From assembly GCA_944329505.1 (NCBI GenBank), contig CALVIJ010000001.1, positions 1 to 31,204 on the forward strand: DNA of 31,204 bases, read 5' to 3'. Both the position numbers and the translations under genes were made by a program. The notes below the pieces were generated by a model, which saw only the letters and a list, made by a program, of their open reading frames with translations, did not search any database and was not told the origin of the DNA. The DNA is from an uncultured Bacilli bacterium. GTDB taxonomy: Bacteria > Bacillota_I > Bacilli_A > RF39 > UBA660. Positions 2,291 through 28,712 of the stretch are shown piece after piece (within the stretch, counting starts at the first letter, position 1; every line of letters starts with the position of its first letter).

Positions 2291-3442
2291 TCAAACCTTT
2301 TCTATTAATTTTTCAAAATTATTATTTACAAAATCATTATCGTTCATAACTTTTTCCACATACTTATTAAAATTTTCCTTATTAATTTCAGCGTTTTTAA
2401 CAACTTTTCCATAGTTAGGATACTTTTCCACAATATTATTTCTATTTACAAGATAAGATGAACCACTAAAATTATAAGTAATACTATCTAAGTTATCAAT
2501 TAAACTAAAAAGAGAAACACTATTATATATCAAAGCTTTATTAACATATAAATCATTGTTATAATACCAATCAGTCATCTGATAATCAATTACTAAATTA
2601 TTATCATCTAATTCAAACACATAGCCATAATTAGAAAGTGGTAAAGCATTAATTAAATTGCCAGTATTACTATTGTCACCTACATACTTACTTTTATATT
2701 TTATCATATTATCAATCCCACTAATACTTCTATTAAAAGGACTCATAGGTACTGTGGAAAAATTATACTCCTTTGAATTATCCACAATATAATATTCATT
2801 AGGTGTATCATGATTTATTCTAAAAACATTATAAAATAAAGTCTCGTATTCTATTATTCCATCGCTAATATAAGTAACAGTTAATCTAAACCTCGGAACA
2901 CTTTTATTTTCCACAACATTCAAATAATCAAAAAATAATAAAAGCCCTAAACATAAAAAAGTAACTCCCAAAGTTAAGATCCATTGCCAAATGATTTTAA
3001 AGTTCTTTAAACATCTATTAAAACCAAATATAAACATTGATAATCCAACCGCACTATAAATAGCACCCCAGCTACTTTCAGGTGAAGTAACAATCAAAGC
3101 AGAAATAATTACAAAAAGTCCAAAAAACATAAATAATAGATATATATTCTTAGAGAGGTTATTTTTAATAACACTAAAATAATCAGTAATATTTTCAATA
3201 TTCTTATCAGCCACATTTTTATAATCATCTTTAATTTCTTCACCACTTAAAAGTTCATTAAGTGTAATACCTAAAGTCTCACTCAAAGGTTTAAGTAAAG
3301 ATAAATCTGGCATATAATTTCCATTTTCCCATCTCGATACCGTCTTATTAGTCACACCCAATATATTCGCAAGCTCTTCCTGTGTCATATTTTTTTCTTT
3401 TCGTTTCTTAGAAATAAATTTTCCAATCTTTAAAGTATCCAA
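2291..3442 (-). CDS. XRE-family HTH regulator fused to 3 TM helices and a C-terminal DUF4825-like domain
   Basis: N-terminal KIGKFISKKRKEKNMTQEELANILGVTNKTVSRWENG (Cro/CI HTH); hydrophobic segments; C-terminal KYKSKYVGDNSNTGNLINALP...NSVSLFSLIDNLDSITYNF typical of DUF4825. Start moved to TTG 3442 (SD GAGGTG). Confidence 0.8.
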   Translation of the reverse strand: MDTLKIGKFISKKRKEKNMTQEELANILGVTNKTVSRWENGNYMPDLSLLKPLSETLGITLNELLSGEEIKDDYKNVADKNIENITDYFSVIKNNLSKNIYLLFMFFGLFVIISALIVTSPESSWGAIYSAVGLSMFIFGFNRCLKNFKIIWQWILTLGVTFLCLGLLLFFDYLNVVENKSVPRFRLTVTYISDGIIEYETLFYNVFRINHDTPNEYYIVDNSKEYNFSTVPMSPFNRSISGIDNMIKYKSKYVGDNSNTGNLINALPLSNYGYVFELDDNNLVIDYQMTDWYYNNDLYVNKALIYNSVSLFSLIDNLDSITYNFSGSSYLVNRNNIVEKYPNYGKVVKNAEINKENFNKYVEKVMNDNDFVNNNFEKLIEKV

Positions 3443-3683
3443 ACTTCTCACCTCAAAAAAAGGATATCAAAATTCATAAAATTTTAATACCCCATAAATA
3501 GCGAATTACTTAAAATAAAACTACATATTTTTACATTTTATTACCTTATAAATCAAAATACCGTATTTTTTTCAAAAATATAAAGTAAATGTTAAGAAAA
3601 AATTGAATTTATTTTAAAATACCAAAAAGTAATATTTTAGAAAAATTACAGATAAAAACGCAAAAATGTAAATCAAGTGTAAA

Positions 3684-15840: not shown

Positions 15841-17693
15841 GCGTTACCTCTTTTCATATACATTGTTAAAATAGAAATATCAGCCGGATTTACCCCACTA
15901 ATTCTCATTGCTTGTCCAATCGTAAGTGGTCTAACTTCTTTTAACTTTTGCTTAGCTTCACTAGCTAAATTATGCATCGCATCATAATCAATATCTTCTG
16001 GTATTTTCTTATCTTCTAATTTTTTTAACTTCTCAGCTTCAAGTAATGACTTTTTAATATATCCCTCATATTTAGCTGATATAGAAATTTGTTCTAAAAC
16101 CTCAAAGCTATATTCATTATCTAAAAACTGAGTTAAATCAGTAATTTTGATTTCTGGTCTTCTAAGTAAATCATATAAAGAAACACCATCTTTTAATTCT
16201 TTAGTACCTAAACTAACTAAATAATCATTATTTTTAGGAGTTAATCTTTTTTCTTTAAATTCTAATGTTGCCTTTTCTATTTCTTCTTTCTTATTAATAA
16301 ACTTCGCATATTTTTCATCAGATACTAATCCAAACTTATGACCATATTCTCTAAGCCTCAAATCCGCATTATCTGTTCTAAGTAAAAGTCTATATTCCGC
16401 ACGTGAAGTTAACAACCTATAAGGATCTCTTATACCTTTGGTAATTAAATCGTCAATTAATACCCCGATATAAGCCTCATCTCTTCTTAAAATAAATGGT
16501 TCCTTACCCTCTAATTTCAAACAAGCATTAATACCAGCCATTAATCCCTGGCAAGCAGCCTCTTCATATCCACTAGTACCATTAATCTGACCAGCAGTAA
16601 ATAAATTTTCAATTAACTTAGTTTCCAAATTAAATTTAAGTTGCGTTGGATAAATCGCATCATATTCTATCGCATAAGCATACTTTAATATCTTCGCATT
16701 TTCTAATCCAGGCAAACTATGAACCATCTTTTCTTGTACATCATAAGGCATACTTGTTGAAAAACCTTGAACATATATATAATCATAATATAAACTTTCA
16801 GGTTCTAAAAATAACTGATGTCTTTCCTTATCACTAAACCTAACTATCTTGTCCTCAATCGATGGACAATATCTTGGACCAACACCTTTAATATCAGATA
16901 ACCCTCCATACATACTAGATTTATTTAAATTATCTCTAATAATTTTATGTGTATCATCATTAGTATAAATTAAATAACAAGACACCTGTTTATCTATATC
17001 ATACATCGGTTCATTATCAAAACTAAAAGTGTGATAAACATTATCGCCATTTTCCAACTTAGTCTTAGAAAAATCAATACTATCTTTAGCTATTCTAGGT
17101 GGTGTTCCAGTCTTTAATCTTTTAATAATAAAACCTTTTTTAGCCAAATTATCACTTAAATAATTAGATGGCTTCTCACCATGAGGTCCCTCTCTATGAC
17201 GAGTATCACCTACCATAATATCCGCATTCATATAAGTACCAGTTGTTAAAATAACCGCTTTAGCTTTAATCTCTTCTCCACTTTCAAATAATACACCACT
17301 AACCTTATTATTAGGAGTTATTATATCTTTAACTAAAGCTTCCTTAATATCTAAATTATCTGTACTCTTCAAAGTTTCAATCATATTTTTCGGATACGTA
17401 ACTTTATCTGCTTGCGCGCGAAGCGATCTAACTGCTGGACCTTTAGCTGTATTAAGCATCTTTATTTGTAATAAACTCTTATCCGCATTATTTCCCATCT
17501 CTCCACCTAAAGCATCGATTTCTCTAACAACTATACCTTTCGCACTTCCACCAATAGATGGATTACAAGGCATATCTGCAATATTATTAATATTTCCTGT
17601 AACAAGTAATGTTTTGTGTCCCATACGTGCACATGCTAAAGCTGCCTCACATCCCGCATGTCCACCACCTACTACAATAACTTCATATTCCAT
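15837..17693 (-). CDS. mnmG: tRNA U34 modification enzyme MnmG (GidA)
   Basis: VVGGGHAGCEAA, MPCNPSIGG, RLKTGTPPR, GPRYCPSIEDK, AGQINGTSGYEEAA, RLLTSRAEYRL. Start ATG 17693. Confidence 0.97.
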   Translation of the reverse strand: MEYEVIVVGGGHAGCEAALACARMGHKTLLVTGNINNIADMPCNPSIGGSAKGIVVREIDALGGEMGNNADKSLLQIKMLNTAKGPAVRSLRAQADKVTYPKNMIETLKSTDNLDIKEALVKDIITPNNKVSGVLFESGEEIKAKAVILTTGTYMNADIMVGDTRHREGPHGEKPSNYLSDNLAKKGFIIKRLKTGTPPRIAKDSIDFSKTKLENGDNVYHTFSFDNEPMYDIDKQVSCYLIYTNDDTHKIIRDNLNKSSMYGGLSDIKGVGPRYCPSIEDKIVRFSDKERHQLFLEPESLYYDYIYVQGFSTSMPYDVQEKMVHSLPGLENAKILKYAYAIEYDAIYPTQLKFNLETKLIENLFTAGQINGTSGYEEAACQGLMAGINACLKLEGKEPFILRRDEAYIGVLIDDLITKGIRDPYRLLTSRAEYRLLLRTDNADLRLREYGHKFGLVSDEKYAKFINKKEEIEKATLEFKEKRLTPKNNDYLVSLGTKELKDGVSLYDLLRRPEIKITDLTQFLDNEYSFEVLEQISISAKYEGYIKKSLLEAEKLKKLEDKKIPEDIDYDAMHNLASEAKQKLKEVRPLTIGQAMRISGVNPADISILTMYMKRGNA

Positions 17694-18880: not shown

Positions 18881-19360
18881 TTATTTAACTTTATTATTAG
18901 AGTTTAAAATATGAGAAATAGAATAATTATACTGCGAAATCACACTATTTATAAAACCTTTAATCACATCTGAACAGCATTCTTCAAAAGAATGACCCAA
19001 AGACATTGCATATTTAAAAATTAATTCAATAAATAAATTACGTTCTTTAACATCACATATAAATTCATGATAAACATCATAGCCATTATATATTTCTGGA
19101 TTTGTAGAAATCAGCCCCAAACCATCTGTTGAACGCAATATCAAAATCCAACTATCCGCATCAAACATCCAACCAGTACATTCAAGAAGCATTGCATTTA
19201 ATTCTTCAATTGAAATTGGTAATTCAATATTATTAGTTGCATTCGACAAATATTTTTTTTAATTGTCAGTAACAACTTCAAACTCTTCATCTTCATCAAA
19301 AAGATTTTCTTCTGTATAACCTAATTGATTTAAAATATTACGAAAATTAACATCAAACAT
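18881..19360 (-). pseudogene. Orphan 159-codon gene interrupted by an in-frame TAA at codon 34
   Basis: Strong SD AAGGAGGT with ATG at 19360 reads MFDVNFRNILNQLGY...VTDN* (TAA 19261-19259). The same frame then continues KKY-LSNATNN as track ORF 19249-18881. Confidence 0.75.
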
Positions 19361-19417
19361 TCTTATAACCTCCTTCGAATAAATTATGAAGTTTTCTTCA
19401 CCCAAATACAGAATATC

Positions 19418-19454
19418 AAAAAAACAAGTAATATTTTCGACAAATCACTTGTTT
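19418..19454 (-). terminator. Likely terminator after mnmE
   Basis: AAACAAGTGAT-N11-ATTACTTGTTT (one G:U pair) followed by TTTT. Confidence 0.5.
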
Positions 19455-19466
19455 TACATTTTTATA

Positions 19467-20816
19467 CTACTTTCCAACACAAAATCTACTAAATAATTGA
19501 TCTAATAATTCATCATCATAACTCTCACCAATTATCTCGCCAAGTAAATTCCATATATCTTTTAAATCAATCTCTACCATATCAATAGGATAATTATCTT
19601 CAATCCCTTTTCTAACCGCTTTAACACTCTCTAAAACCTTTCTTAAAATAGCTTGACTTCTCGCACTAGTTAAATAGGTTAAATCAGTTGTTTCTATCTT
19701 CTCTAAATTGAATAAACTTTTAATTTTATTACCTATTTCATCAATATTTTCATCATTTAAAGCACTCACATATATAGCATTAGATAACTTTTCATCATCA
19801 ATTTTCTTCTCTAAATCAGTCTTATTAACTATTGTAATGTAATTCTTATCCTTTAATTTATTCAAAATAATCAAATCATCTGAACTTAATTTTTCATTAT
19901 AATTAACTACAAATAAAACTAAATCTGCCTCATCTATTAATTTTAAACTTTTCTCTACCCCAATACTTTCAACAACATCATCAGTTTCACGAATTCCAGC
20001 TGTATCAATCAAATTTAAAATCAAATTATCGACTCTCAAAGTAGCCTCAACACTATCACGAGTAGTTCCTTGAATATCTGTAACAATAGCTTTATCTTCA
20101 CCTATCAATCTATTAAGTAAACTACTCTTACCAACATTTGGTTTACCAATAATAGCTGTTTTAATACCATTAGTTAAAACTTCTCCATTTTTACTTTCTT
20201 TCAAAATTTTATCTATTTTGTCTTCAAGTTCACTTAAACTTTCATTTATCTTACCTATTGTCATTTCTTCTATATCTTCATACTCAGGATAATCAATATT
20301 AACTTCAATATTCGCAATTATACCTGCAAGCTCATCTCTAAGCTTACTAATCATTGTAGATACCTTACCACCAACTTGATTTAAAGCTATTTTCCGGGAA
20401 ATATCTGTCTTAGAATTAATCAAATCCATAATACCCTCAGCTTCTGTTAAATCAATTCGCCCATTTAAAAATGCTCTTTTAGTAAACTCTCCAGGTTCAG
20501 CAAGTCTACAACCATTCACAAGTAATAATTCTAAAATCTTATCAGTTGTCATAATTCCACCATGTGCATTAATCTCAACAACATCTTCCTTAGTAAACGT
20601 TTTAGGAGCTCGCATAACAGAAACCAAAACTTCATCTATTTTTTCATCGCCATCCATTATATAACCATAATGAATAGTATGTGTAGGCGCATCTTTAAAA
20701 TTTTTATTAGAAAAAATCTTACTAACTACATTAATAGCTTCATCACCACTAACTCTAATTATCGAAATAGCCCCAATACCTTGAGCTGTCGAAATAGCTG
20801 CTATTGTATCATCCAT
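19467..20816 (-). CDS. mnmE: tRNA modification GTPase MnmE (TrmE)
   Basis: DTIAAIST, PGEFTKRAFLNGRIDLTEAE, GKPNVGKSS, GTTRD, DTAGIR, FSRFCVGK terminus. Confidence 0.97.
   Translation of the reverse strand: MDDTIAAISTAQGIGAISIIRVSGDEAINVVSKIFSNKNFKDAPTHTIHYGYIMDGDEKIDEVLVSVMRAPKTFTKEDVVEINAHGGIMTTDKILELLLVNGCRLAEPGEFTKRAFLNGRIDLTEAEGIMDLINSKTDISRKIALNQVGGKVSTMISKLRDELAGIIANIEVNIDYPEYEDIEEMTIGKINESLSELEDKIDKILKESKNGEVLTNGIKTAIIGKPNVGKSSLLNRLIGEDKAIVTDIQGTTRDSVEATLRVDNLILNLIDTAGIRETDDVVESIGVEKSLKLIDEADLVLFVVNYNEKLSSDDLIILNKLKDKNYITIVNKTDLEKKIDDEKLSNAIYVSALNDENIDEIGNKIKSLFNLEKIETTDLTYLTSARSQAILRKVLESVKAVRKGIEDNYPIDMVEIDLKDIWNLLGEIIGESYDDELLDQLFSRFCVGK
20389..20402. promoter_or_regulatory. Noc-binding-site-like palindrome inside mnmE
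   Basis: ATTTTCCGGGAAAT, 13/14 to ATTTCCCGGGAAAT; it uses a GC-rich CGG Arg codon in an AT-rich gene. Confidence 0.55.
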
Positions 20817-25232: not shown

Positions 25233-25455
25233 TTTTCCACAGTAAAATTTTTTCTAATTTTATCCACTTTTTATTTCCACACAAAATTGCCATATATTAT
25301 AAACTTTTTTTTCCATTTTTCAACATATGTGTAAAAGAAAAATTTATGCACAAATGTGCAAAAATAATTATCCACAATTTATGTGGAAAGATGACAAAAT
25401 TCGACAAAATTAAACAAAATAAAGGGTGTTAATAACTTTTTTATATTTTTCCACA
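25233..25455. other. oriC, left part (DnaA-box cluster upstream of dnaA)
   Basis: TTATCCACA at 25368-25376, plus near matches at 25233, 25260, 25273, 25328, 25344, 25355, 25382 and 25447. Confidence 0.9.
25390..25420. promoter_or_regulatory. Tandem 10-bp-period Spo0A-box-like array in oriC
   Basis: GATGACA-aaa-TTCGACA-aaa-TTAAACA-aaa. The middle unit is a perfect 0A box (TGTCGAA on the minus strand). Confidence 0.6.
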
Positions 25456-25527
25456 GTTTTTATAGAAAAAAATGTAAATTTATTGTAAAATGTATGTAGA
25501 TTGTTTATTAACTATGGGGGTAGTAGT

Positions 25528-26871
25528 ATGGATTTAGAAAACATGTGGTCCGTTTTTTTGTCTAAAATTGAGATAAAATTAAAGCCTGTTTTATTTCAAA
25601 CTTGGTTTCAAGAAACAAAGTTAATAGATTTAAATAATGAATATGCCATAGTCGAAGTTCCACTAGATGTGCATAAAAAACACTTACAAGAAAACTATGG
25701 TGAAATAATAAAAGAAACCTTTATGGAAGTTACCGGATCTATCTTCAAATTTAAATATGTCACTAAAGACGAGATAACTGAAGATAAACCCCAAACAAAA
25801 GTAGAAGACAATAATGAAGCACTATTTGAAAGCGGACTTGATAGTAAATATACATTTGATAACTTTATTTCAGGAGAAAGTAACAAATTTGCCAAAGCTA
25901 TTGGACTAGCAGTAGCCGAAAAACCAGGCGCTATGTATAATCCTTTATTTATATATGGTAACAGTGGACTTGGAAAAACCCACTTAATGCACGCTATTGG
26001 AAACTACATCATGGCAACATCTAATAAAAAAGTATTATATGTAACCAGCGAAAAATTTGTTGATGACTTTCTTAATATATATAGAAAGAACGAAACAAGT
26101 AATTTTAAAGCTGTGGATAACTTTAAAAGAAAATATCGTGACATCGATGTTTTAATGATTGATGACATCCAATACTTAGAAATTGCTAGTAAAACTCAAC
26201 AAGAGTTTTTCAACACATTTAACGAATTACACACAAAAAATAAACAAATTATTATATCTTCAGACCGTTCACCAGATGATCTAAAAAAACTAGAAGAAAG
26301 ACTTAGAACAAGATTTAACTGGGGATTAACTATCGACATATTACCTCCAGACTTTGAACTAAGAATGGCCATTATAGATAAAAAAATCGAAGCTCATCAC
26401 ATAGGAAGTTTTGTTCCAAGAGAAGTCAAAGAATATATTGCCAACAACTGTACAACAGATATTAGAAAACTAGAAGGAGCTTTGACTAGAGTATTTGCTT
26501 ATGCTACTATAATGAATGGTTCTGAAATAACCTTAGAACTTGCAGTTGAAGCACTAAAAGATTATATTGGAAAAAACATCATATCGAGAAACAAAATAGA
26601 TCAAGTAATTCAATTAGTAGCTAACAATTACAACATTACTGTGGAAGACATAAAATCTAAAAAAAGGTTATCCAAAATAGCCGTTCCAAGACAAATTGGA
26701 ATGTATATATGTAGAGTTCACTTAAAAGAATCTCTACCTAAAATTGGTAGTGAATTCGGTGGAAAAGATCATACAACAGTTATGCACTCAGTTGCAAAAA
26801 TAAAAAGAGAACTAAAAAAAGATAAAAATCTCGAAGTGGAAATCTCTAAAATAATTAACCAAATTAAATAG
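25528..26871 (+). CDS. dnaA: Chromosomal replication initiator DnaA
   Basis: YNPLFIYGNSGLGKTHL, LMIDDIQ, RLRTRF, RQIGMYI, GGKDHTTVMHS. Start set at ATG 25528. Confidence 0.98.
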   Translation: MDLENMWSVFLSKIEIKLKPVLFQTWFQETKLIDLNNEYAIVEVPLDVHKKHLQENYGEIIKETFMEVTGSIFKFKYVTKDEITEDKPQTKVEDNNEALFESGLDSKYTFDNFISGESNKFAKAIGLAVAEKPGAMYNPLFIYGNSGLGKTHLMHAIGNYIMATSNKKVLYVTSEKFVDDFLNIYRKNETSNFKAVDNFKRKYRDIDVLMIDDIQYLEIASKTQQEFFNTFNELHTKNKQIIISSDRSPDDLKKLEERLRTRFNWGLTIDILPPDFELRMAIIDKKIEAHHIGSFVPREVKEYIANNCTTDIRKLEGALTRVFAYATIMNGSEITLELAVEALKDYIGKNIISRNKIDQVIQLVANNYNITVEDIKSKKRLSKIAVPRQIGMYICRVHLKESLPKIGSEFGGKDHTTVMHSVAKIKRELKKDKNLEVEISKIINQIK

Positions 26872-27010
26872 TGGATAATAAAAGTTTTTTCCACAGTTAT
26901 GCACAAAGTGTAAACCAAGAAAAAAGTCTTAAATAACAATGTAAAGTTATACTTTTCCACACTTATCCACATCAATAATAAAAAATAACTTAATTAATAA
27001 TAAAACAAAG
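26870..27010. other. oriC, right part (dnaA-dnaN intergenic DnaA boxes plus AT-rich unwinding element)
   Basis: Boxes at 26870, 26887, 26897, 26953 and a perfect TTATCCACA at 26963-26971, followed by an almost purely A/T tract. Confidence 0.88.
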
Positions 27011-27022
27011 GAGTGATTTTAA

Positions 27023-28144
27023 ATGAAATTAGAAATTAAACAAAACGTACTTTTAGAACATTTAAACTATGTCATAAGAGGTATTTCAACAAAAAACCTA
27101 AGACCTATTTTAAACTGTATAAAATTTGAACTAACTGATGATGGTTTATATTTAATGAGTACTGATAGTGATATTTCAATAAAAACATTTATAGATAAAA
27201 AAGATATTAACAATATAGACACAAAAGGAGAAATCGTTGTATCAGGTAGATATATATATGAAATAATAAGAAAATTACCAGATGAAATAATTAATTTAGA
27301 AGAAGTTATCGATTCTAAACTATATATAACAACTAAAAATTCATCATTTACCTTAAATTGTAGTAATGTTAATGAATTTCCTGATTTAGAATTAGAATTT
27401 AACCAAAATCCTATCATTTTAAATCAAAAACTATTTAAAACAATCATCAGTCAAACATCATTTGCTACATCAACTAGTGAAACAAGACCAGTATTAACCG
27501 GTATTAACTTTAAAATTGAAGGTAATACCTTAGAATGTACAGCAACCGATTCATATAGATTAGCTGTTAAAAAAATCACATTAGATAATAATGCTGTGGA
27601 AAACTCCAATATTATCATTCCAACTAAGAACTTAAATGAATTAGTTAAATTGATGAACGAAGATGAAGAAAACTTAGAAATGCATATATTTGCTAACAAA
27701 GTTGTCTTTAAATTCGGTCAAATAACAATGATGACAAGATTAATTAGTGGTACTTATCCAGATACATCTAAATTAATACCAGAAACATATGAATTAACAA
27801 TGCAAGTAAAATATGATGATTTATATAGTGCCATTGATAGAGCATCCCTATTAACAAACGAAAGTGATAAAAACACAATTAAATTTGAAACAACAAGTGA
27901 TACCGCAATAATTTCTTCAAATATCCCAGAAATAGGAAATGTCGAAGAAAAAATTACTGTGGAAAAAAATAATGATAGTGAAATAAAAATTGCTTTCAAC
28001 TCTAAATTTATGATGGATGCTGTAAAATCATTAGAATCAGAAGAAATAGAACTAATGTTCAATGGAGAAATTAAACCAATAATTCTTAAAAATGTCGAAA
28101 GTGACGCTCTAATTCAATTAATTTTACCAATCAGAACTTACTAA
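27023..28144 (+). CDS. dnaN: DNA polymerase III beta clamp
   Basis: RPILNCIK, STDSDISI, TRPVLTG, ATDSYRLA, RLISGTYPD, AFNSKFMMDA, QLILPIRTY. Confidence 0.97.
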   Translation: MKLEIKQNVLLEHLNYVIRGISTKNLRPILNCIKFELTDDGLYLMSTDSDISIKTFIDKKDINNIDTKGEIVVSGRYIYEIIRKLPDEIINLEEVIDSKLYITTKNSSFTLNCSNVNEFPDLELEFNQNPIILNQKLFKTIISQTSFATSTSETRPVLTGINFKIEGNTLECTATDSYRLAVKKITLDNNAVENSNIIIPTKNLNELVKLMNEDEENLEMHIFANKVVFKFGQITMMTRLISGTYPDTSKLIPETYELTMQVKYDDLYSAIDRASLLTNESDKNTIKFETTSDTAIISSNIPEIGNVEEKITVEKNNDSEIKIAFNSKFMMDAVKSLESEEIELMFNGEIKPIILKNVESDALIQLILPIRTY

Positions 28145-28174
28145 AAAGTTCTTTTTTTTGAAAAAATTACCATT

Positions 28175-28201
28175 ATCGACAAAATCAAACAAAATTCGAC
28201 C
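28175..28201. promoter_or_regulatory. Tandem Spo0A-box-like array upstream of the comK-like gene
   Basis: ATCGACA-aaa-TCAAACA-aaa-TTCGACC; 28176-28195 is 19/20 identical to 25401-25420. Confidence 0.6.
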
Positions 28202-28250
28202 CTCAAAATGAGTATAAGAGAGTTGTCATTTTTTATGACGAGGAGGGTTT

Positions 28251-28712
28251 ATGGTTAAAGAAAGTTATGAAATTAATAGTTCGACATGTGCACTTATACC
28301 AAATAGTAATTTTACAAGTACAATAATAGAAAAACATACTAAGGTAAATTCACCATCCACAGTTTATGAAATTATTAATTATAGTTGTGCATATTATGGT
28401 AGTTCATTTAAAGGAAGGTTAAATGGATCGAAATGTGCTTTAGGTAGTAAATATAAGTTACCTATAATTGTTGAAGAATCTAGAGAAATGATATTTTTTC
28501 CAACTTCTTCTTATGATAGTAATGATTGTATTTGGATCTCGTTAAATAATATAGCCAATTACACAAGAAAGGAAAATCACGTTATTGTGGTTTTCGATAA
28601 CAATCAATCAATAGAACTAAAAATGTCGTACGAATCATTTGAAAATCAAGTATTAAGAGCTACAAAACTACTGTTAATTTTAAAAAGCAGAAAAAAAGAC
28701 ATAAATGTATAA
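28251..28712 (+). CDS. comK: ComK-family (competence transcription factor-like) protein
   Basis: YEINSSTCALIP, IINYSCAYYGSSFKGRLNGSK...KYKLPIIV...IFFPTSS....CIWI...VVFDNNQSIEL.MSYESFENQVLRA follows the ComK family pattern; SD GAGGAGG. Confidence 0.8.
   Translation: MVKESYEINSSTCALIPNSNFTSTIIEKHTKVNSPSTVYEIINYSCAYYGSSFKGRLNGSKCALGSKYKLPIIVEESREMIFFPTSSYDSNDCIWISLNNIANYTRKENHVIVVFDNNQSIELKMSYESFENQVLRATKLLLILKSRKKDINV

Follow-up and report, generated by a model that had tools for sequence, protein, structure and literature searches.

Predicted Spo0A-box arrays at the comK promoter and, tentatively, at oriC in the origin region of an uncultured Bacilli bacterium

This study was concerned with two arrays of short repeated boxes in the chromosome of an uncultured Bacilli bacterium (GenBank assembly GCA_944329505.1), one in the promoter of comK and the other in the origin of replication (oriC), upstream of dnaA. 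The DNA analysed, called the window here, is a stretch of 31,204 nucleotides (contig CALVIJ010000001.1, positions 1 to 31,204 of the forward strand). The host genome is a metagenome assembly of 958 kb, 63% complete and with 28.7% G+C, and its GTDB genus, CAG-822 (Coprosoma), belongs to the order RF39 (PMC8035907). The window is the chromosomal origin region: minus-strand genes (rnpA, yidC, jag, mnmE and others) lie to the left of ~25.3 kb and plus-strand genes (dnaA, dnaN, comK, recF and gyrB) to the right of it, the cumulative GC skew has its minimum at 25324, and clusters of DnaA boxes flank dnaA on either side. The genes of most concern, all on the plus strand, are dnaA (25528-26871; Pfam Bac_DnaA, 221 bits), dnaN (27023-28144; Pfam beta-clamp domains) and comK (28251-28712; 153 amino acids; Pfam ComK, 140 bits). 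The order dnaN-comK-recF is contiguous in 23 congeners. Family-level comparisons used 70 other genomes from 52 genera, which with the window's genome make 71 genomes sampled from the order, 69 of them in the window's own family. ComK is a single-copy protein in 71 of the 71 and Spo0A_C was detected in 68, and a comparison of coordinates showed, with five exceptions among the 70 other genomes, that dnaA and comK share a contig and a strand, comK lying ~1.3-1.6 kb beyond the end of dnaA. The two elements are probably both arrays of predicted Spo0A-binding boxes (0A boxes), each box 7 bp long, set in one orientation and separated from the next by a 3-bp gap.

The comK array (28175-28201, minus strand) consists of three phased 0A-type boxes, which read on the plus strand ATCGACA (28175-28181), TCAAACA (28185-28191) and TTCGACC (28195-28201). 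They are followed by a -10-like hexamer, TATAAG (28213-28218, plus strand), inside an invariant block, GAGTATAAGA. Upstream of this block the genus consensus runs TTCGACA, AAA, TTTGACA, AAT, TTCGACA, and in 23 congeners the GACA cores are 80-90% conserved and stand at a fixed distance from the -10. In the genus consensus the promoter-proximal box ends 11 nt before TATAAG, with 20 bp from box 1 to box 3. The promoter contains no -35 hexamer 17 bp from TATAAG; owing to this missing element, a consensus scan for sigma-70 promoters found none at TATAAG, and a sigma-70 call was rejected. A sigma-H reading of GAGTAT or GTCGAAA was also set aside, as no AGGA-type -35 was seen by eye at the correct distance. 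Spo0A binds 0A boxes head-to-tail, and the comK array, which is conserved across the genus and frequent in the family, is quite likely to be a Spo0A operator as predicted.

The oriC-left array (25390-25416, minus strand) also has three phased 0A-type boxes, one of them perfect and two weak. On the plus strand they read GATGACA (25390-25396, a box placed by hand from the sequence), TTCGACA (25400-25406, the perfect one, which is TGTCGAA on the minus strand) and TTAAACA (25410-25416). The array occupies a 36-bp spacer bounded on one side by an inverted pair of DnaA boxes (25368-25390; TTATCCACA at 25368-25376 and TGTGGAAAG at 25382-25390), which abuts it and is conserved across the genus, and on the other by a DnaA-like box, TGTTAATAA (25427-25435), which becomes TGTGGATAx in more distant congeners. 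A further DnaA box, TTTTCCACA, lies at 25447-25455, likewise on the dnaA-proximal side. The array is ~70 bp upstream of a candidate dnaA promoter (25463-25491, plus strand; TAGAAA, a 17-nt spacer and TAAAAT), which was found by the consensus scan in a block conserved in the genus. Of 27 anchored congeners, 13 have a perfect TTCGACA at a fixed site of this spacer, whose sequence varies elsewhere; three of the 13 have just 82-83% DnaA identity. A family-wide oriC box was looked for and not found, since a perfect heptamer no farther than 380 bp from dnaA was seen in just 4 of 40 other genera. In addition, the dnaA-dnaN spacer, the expected location of the unwinding element, contains no perfect box. 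On these counts the oriC half is plausible yet limited to the genus, and it is put forward tentatively, as less secure than the comK half; the balance tips slightly towards a Spo0A site at the oriC array.

A sequence-only reading of the window had proposed that one 20-bp element is shared by oriC (25401-25420) and the comK promoter (28176-28195), the two copies being identical at 19 of 20 positions and each part of three heptamers. Their coordinates and sequences are as claimed, with one base differing, and the box positions bear out the exact 10-bp period around each 20-mer. The idea of a single discrete element did not hold, however. The near-identity is confined to the window's genome, and as evidence in itself it was rejected because a 20-mer pair with at most one mismatch occurred in 28% of 200 first-order Markov shuffles of the window. 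The comK-type 20-mer is not carried by the oriC sites of relatives, so what the two sites share is the short box from which both arrays are made, not a discrete element. A third near copy of the 20-mer (TTATCGACAAAATAAGACAAAAT) lies at G000:C27:4767-4786, ~200 bp upstream of a DUF1292 gene and a 506-amino-acid open reading frame (ORF); the latter had no family match. The perfect heptamers listed by the same reading at 19242, 19436, 27940 and 28093 all exist, and there are two more, at 20787 and 28280. The window holds 7 perfect heptamers, against ~2.6 expected by arithmetic from the genome-wide density. Those inside dnaN (27940 and 28093) and comK (28280) were rejected as extra operators; they are sporadic in relatives and probably a coding coincidence.

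The motif was also followed beyond the two arrays. The 9-mer TTCGACAAA has 6 intergenic copies in the window's genome, where intergenic DNA makes up ~10%, against 4 coding copies. This is a ~9-fold enrichment in intergenic DNA (6 copies against a mean of 0.7 for 9-mers of the same composition, 0.4% of which reach 6), and the shorter TTCGACA is there about twice as frequent as heptamers of the same composition. The six intergenic copies lie in oriC, 79 bp upstream of spo0A, 40 bp upstream of a STAS/SpoIIAA-like gene that is followed by a SigF-like sigma factor gene and spoVAC, in a perfect box pair (10 bp apart) upstream of a gene for a 414-amino-acid histidine kinase, in the promoter of an orphan gene in the window, and at a contig end. 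Conservation at the regulon sites was gauged over ~28 other species of the genus. First, the spo0A box, which in the window's genome reads TTCGACAAAAYTAGCTA and precedes the gene by ~79 bp, has no mismatch in 28 of 29 loci of the genus; in Clostridioides difficile the 0A box of spo0A is at -75 (PMC3485338). Secondly, ahead of the spoIIAA-like/sigF-like operon a perfect TGTCGAA stands in 22 of 28, and the remainder have TGGCGAA or TGACGAA, which fit TGNCGAA. Third, most of 28 intact regions upstream of the kinase gene contain TTCGACA, 3 nt, a second box, ~12 nt and a -10-like hexamer (TAAAAT in the window's genome); the second box is a perfect TTCGACA in 16 and otherwise xxCGACA or xxTGACA. The kinase promoter has the same layout as the comK promoter. 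For the window's genome, no 0A box was seen within ~300 bp upstream of spoIIGA.

Because it is conserved at spo0A, the spoIIA-like operon and the kinase gene, sites independent of oriC and comK, the motif is, on sequence grounds, the 0A box of this lineage. Several of the features by which a 0A operator would be recognized were found. Both arrays have tandem boxes of the same orientation with 3-bp gaps (a 10-bp period); the core TGTCGAA/TGNCGAA is present, perfect at 25400-25406 and at 6 of 7 positions at 28175-28181 and 28195-28201; and the motif occurs at canonical Spo0A targets, namely spo0A and the spoIIAA-like/sigF-like operon, plus a histidine kinase gene.

The attribution to Spo0A also called for the protein itself, and Pfam and NCBIfam profiles found its gene. 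The host genome encodes a full-length Spo0A with a receiver domain and a Pfam Spo0A_C domain (142-143 bits), and the Spo0A equivalog NCBIfam TIGR02875 scored 270 bits against a cut-off of 200. The C-terminal domain aligns end to end with that of B. subtilis (Spo0A-C, PDB 1LQ1), and the recognition helix, SRVERAIRHAIEV, is identical. The similarly conserved Spo0A of C. difficile contacts TGTCGAA through G2, C4 and G5 (PMC3485338). Spo0A was found in 27 of 30 congeners (12 of 12 among the high-quality ones), and SpoIVA, SpoIIGA, SASP and ComEC were present in 5 of 5 genomes tested. RF39 is predicted to be spore-forming yet to be without spoIIAB and spoIIE (PMC10868615). In the spoIIA-like operon (G000:C14:4000-9000) the STAS gene is directly followed by the SigF-like sigma gene, with no spoIIAB between them; the operon continues with a pseudopilin-like (N_methyl) gene and then spoVAC, and the kinase gene is preceded by another N_methyl gene.

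At the family level single CGACA boxes were counted, as a strict count of phased pairs caught just 5 of 27 genomes with an intact Spo0A. Among 40 comK upstream regions, a sense-strand CGACA was present in 23 of the 36 from genomes with Spo0A_C and in none of the 4 from genomes without it; the chance expectation, estimated from composition, is ~0.05 per region. Nine genomes of the family in which SpoIVA was not found were then used to compare the boxes with the state of the Spo0A domain. TTCGACA occurs twice at comK in G068, which has a 178-amino-acid Spo0A ORF with an identical helix. G111 has a stand-alone domain of 120 amino acids and the boxes TTCGACA and CTCGACA, G056 an ORF of 125 amino acids and TTCGACT twice, and G047 and G050 have ORFs of 220 and 210 amino acids, respectively, each with tandem boxes. 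In G062 the helix is divergent and the boxes are altered (ATCGCCx). No such boxes were found in G103 and G078, where no spo0A gene was found, or in G105, where a remnant with stop codons and a decayed helix is left. Boxes are therefore kept in five of the six SpoIVA-less genomes with a Spo0A DNA-binding domain (and altered in the sixth) and absent in all three without a usable one. G105 and G111, being congeners, can be compared as a matched pair. All nine genomes still have ComK and DnaA, and the retention of these proteins where the boxes vanish argues against either as the binding protein and for the Spo0A domain. Short or stand-alone ORFs of the Spo0A C-terminal domain (120-178 amino acids, without a receiver) were seen in four of these genomes, G111, G056, G062 and G068.

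The proposal of a single regulator, probably Spo0A, at both oriC and comK was thus largely right for comK, where it is well supported by the recognition helix, the regulon sites, the conservation of the array and the co-loss with the Spo0A domain. For oriC, where conservation is restricted as described above, it is tentative. Several observations weigh against Spo0A control of both sites. First, the window's own comK boxes score 6/7, 4/7 and 6/7, and none is perfect. Secondly, G082, G081 and G054 have an intact Spo0A yet no clear comK boxes. Third, the co-loss pattern involves few lineages of related, non-independent genomes and is nominally significant at best by hand calculation. Fourth, phased A runs after each box could add a function through DNA curvature. 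The remaining points concern oriC: the 19/20 identity is not significant by itself; the box is missing from about half of the congeners; the window's perfect box is exactly 10 bp farther from the DnaA-like box than it is in relatives, which could reflect turnover under selection or simply drift; and the boxes near dnaA in other genera amount to 4 in 15.2 kb, which is not clearly above the intergenic background of ~1 per 8.6 kb.

These last points bear on the possibility that the comK array alone works as a Spo0A operator, while the match at oriC is marginal or non-functional and the 19/20 identity a coincidence of AT-rich DNA with repeated ACAAAAT. The frequency of such pairs in the shuffles, the lack of the comK-type 20-mer at the oriC sites of relatives, and the scarcity of the perfect box upstream of dnaA outside the genus and its loss within it all fit this explanation. 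It does not readily account for a TTCGACA that is invariant within a variable spacer in 13 congeners, including divergent ones, or for a displacement in the window of exactly one helical turn that leaves the box between DnaA boxes, and B. subtilis offers a precedent for 0A boxes at oriC (PMC5295017). Coincidence at oriC is accordingly considered unlikely, though it deserves to be taken seriously.

It is improbable that the boxes are bound by some other factor that disappears along with sporulation, or that they serve chiefly, through their phased A-tracts, to curve the promoter DNA. An AAA(A)T does follow every box at the 10-bp phase, and co-loss with sporulation genes alone cannot separate Spo0A from other sporulation-linked regulators. 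However, conservation centres on GACA with a C or T before it, and not on the A-tract; the variants at the spoIIA-like site fit TGNCGAA; SpoIVA-less genomes retain the boxes when just the DNA-binding domain of Spo0A is retained; and the recognition helix is identical to that of a protein whose site is TGTCGAA (PMC3485338). That the boxes are autoregulatory sites of ComK is very improbable. The array does lie in the comK promoter, and ComK of B. subtilis activates its own promoter (PMC3297582), but the array contains no two AAAA-N5-TTTT motifs at helical spacing; the only match near comK is the dnaN terminator, and none overlaps the array. The same motif, moreover, stands at spo0A, the spoIIA-like operon and the kinase gene, and ComK is universal in the family sample while the boxes are absent where Spo0A_C is lost. 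Regulation of comK by DnaA through variant DnaA boxes is scarcely credible: although 28173-28181 reads TTATCGACA and matches a DnaA box at 8 of 9 positions, and the 0A and DnaA consensus sequences are similar (PMC5295017), the CCACA core of TTATCCACA and of the true DnaA boxes nearby is not found at this site or its orthologues, where relatives keep CGACA or TGACA, the position-6 G is retained, with no alternation to C, conservation does not extend to the TTAT prefix, and the boxes disappear with Spo0A_C while DnaA is universal in the family.

Returning to Spo0A as the binding protein, we infer its physical contact with the boxes, the start of transcription, and both the sign and the outcome of regulation; the proposed action of phosphorylated Spo0A (Spo0A~P) at both sites is drawn by analogy from B. 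subtilis (PMC5295017, PMC3297582) and from the phages phi29/Nf (PMC2731898). A transcription start ~7 nt after TATAAG would put the three comK boxes at about -50 to -24. Spo0A~P would fill the array cooperatively and gate the access of RNA polymerase, and because the boxes would lie at these positions and there is no -35 at the normal spacing, it would directly decide whether polymerase uses the promoter. Activation of comK is marginally favoured because there is no -35, a -35-like box stands ~21-22 nt from the -10, and the geometry is identical to that of the kinase promoter. Alternatively, Spo0A may repress comK, a precedent being the tandem boxes over the phi29/Nf A2c core promoter. At oriC-left, as cells enter sporulation, Spo0A would interfere with the assembly of DnaA or the autoregulation of dnaA, as at B. 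subtilis oriC.

The background given in the sequence-only reading, that B. subtilis has 0A boxes at both oriC and PcomK, is confirmed in the literature. B. subtilis oriC carries 0A boxes (PMC5295017, citing Boonstra 2013 and Castilla-Llorente 2006), and PcomK has five 0A-like boxes (Mirouze et al. 2012, PMC3297582). The two comK promoters are alike in having several 0A-like heptamers (≤2/7 mismatches), one of them over the -35 region, and in B. subtilis Spo0A couples competence to the sporulation decision. They differ in that the boxes here form one head-to-tail array of strict 10-bp period, which would itself form the core promoter (about -50 to -24), with no separate upstream activation cluster, recognisable ComK boxes or -35 at 17 bp. 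In addition, comK is flanked here by dnaN and recF, whereas in B. subtilis it is far from the origin. The oriC-left array resembles B. subtilis oriC in having 0A boxes within the DnaA-box region flanking dnaA, and the expected effect would be inhibited initiation at sporulation entry. In B. subtilis the boxes partly overlap DnaA boxes, whereas here they are interleaved in the spacer between them, only upstream of dnaA; the dnaA-dnaN spacer here is without a perfect box, and conservation is limited to about half of one genus.

Two operators with the same 7+3+7 arrangement, a 25-30 bp footprint and an overlap with the core promoter are the phi29/Nf A2c promoter, where two 0A boxes 3 bp apart repress (PMC2731898), and the abrB operator bound by Spo0A-C (PDB 1LQ1). 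Both of those sites repress; the comK and kinase arrays may repress or activate. The geometry of the arrays studied here can be set beside a further group of promoters. The spoIIG and spoIIE sigma-A promoters, studied by Satola, Baldus and Moran and by Spiegelman, reportedly have a -35-like element ~21-22 nt from the -10 that is overlapped by 0A boxes. A similar geometry is seen in the kinase promoter, whose distal TCGACA is 22 nt from the -10, in the comK promoter, whose middle box is ~21 nt from TATAAG, and in the orphan promoter at 19436, with its 22-nt spacer. Here the spacer holds an extra box, at about -30 to -24, unlike in those promoters.

The orphan promoter has a perfect 0A box (19436-19442, minus strand) that overlaps a -35-like TTGTCG, 22 nt from a -10-like TATTCT. 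A second perfect box (19242-19248) overlaps the called start of an orphan ORF of 122 amino acids. The region between (19259-19442, minus strand) has a leader hairpin, a strong ribosome-binding site and a 33-amino-acid ORF (19360-19259), with the 122-amino-acid orphan ORF downstream. Elsewhere, at G000:C15:3170, the phased sequences ATCGACA, ATCGACT and TTTGACG lie upstream of a gene with a glucosaminidase domain, the last of them being a -35 that is 17 nt from TAGAAT.

Two hairpins stand on either side of the comK promoter. The first (28133-28159, plus strand) is terminator-like and lies over the dnaN stop codon, with AGAACTT, a 6-nt loop, AAGTTCT and a run of 8 T; its motif, AAGTTCTTTTTTTT, is retained in most congeners, and its stem is too weak for the consensus scan to call. 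The second is a small stem-loop (28223-28241, plus strand) located where the 5' end of the comK mRNA is predicted, and the ribosome-binding site AGGAGG follows immediately. The fold recurs in 21 congeners despite differing stem sequences, with compensatory changes and G-U pairs, and for this reason the stem-loop probably acts at the level of the RNA, for instance by stabilising the 5' end or gating translation. Away from the origin, five DnaA boxes (at most one mismatch) are found within 560 bp (2352-2915), inside an ORF of 386 amino acids at 2291-3451. Lastly, a direct repeat of at least ~43 bp occurs at 17517 and 18598, 1081 bp apart, and the 5' region of mnmG is duplicated in the spacer.

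To our knowledge, the experiments that established control of comK and oriC by Spo0A were done mainly in B. subtilis. The arrays described here are predicted to be a variant of that wiring in an uncultured gut lineage. From its sequence, the comK link is predicted for this whole lineage, whose genomes are 1-1.5 Mb, and the oriC link for one genus. If the prediction is correct, the arrays also offer short DNA fragments suited to existing Spo0A proteins. The shortened Spo0A kept alongside comK boxes in SpoIVA-less genomes suggests a role for Spo0A outside sporulation. It is possible, if doubtful, that the family CAG-822 has, as a core circuit kept independently of sporulation, an origin-embedded comK controlled directly by Spo0A; in lineages where SpoIVA was not found, a reduced Spo0A domain would still pair with the boxes, and these would be lost only with the domain. 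The comK promoter seems to be little more than a Spo0A array and a -10, placed beside the origin. If this is true, it would be a minimal, readable form of the circuit that decides among sporulation, competence and replication.

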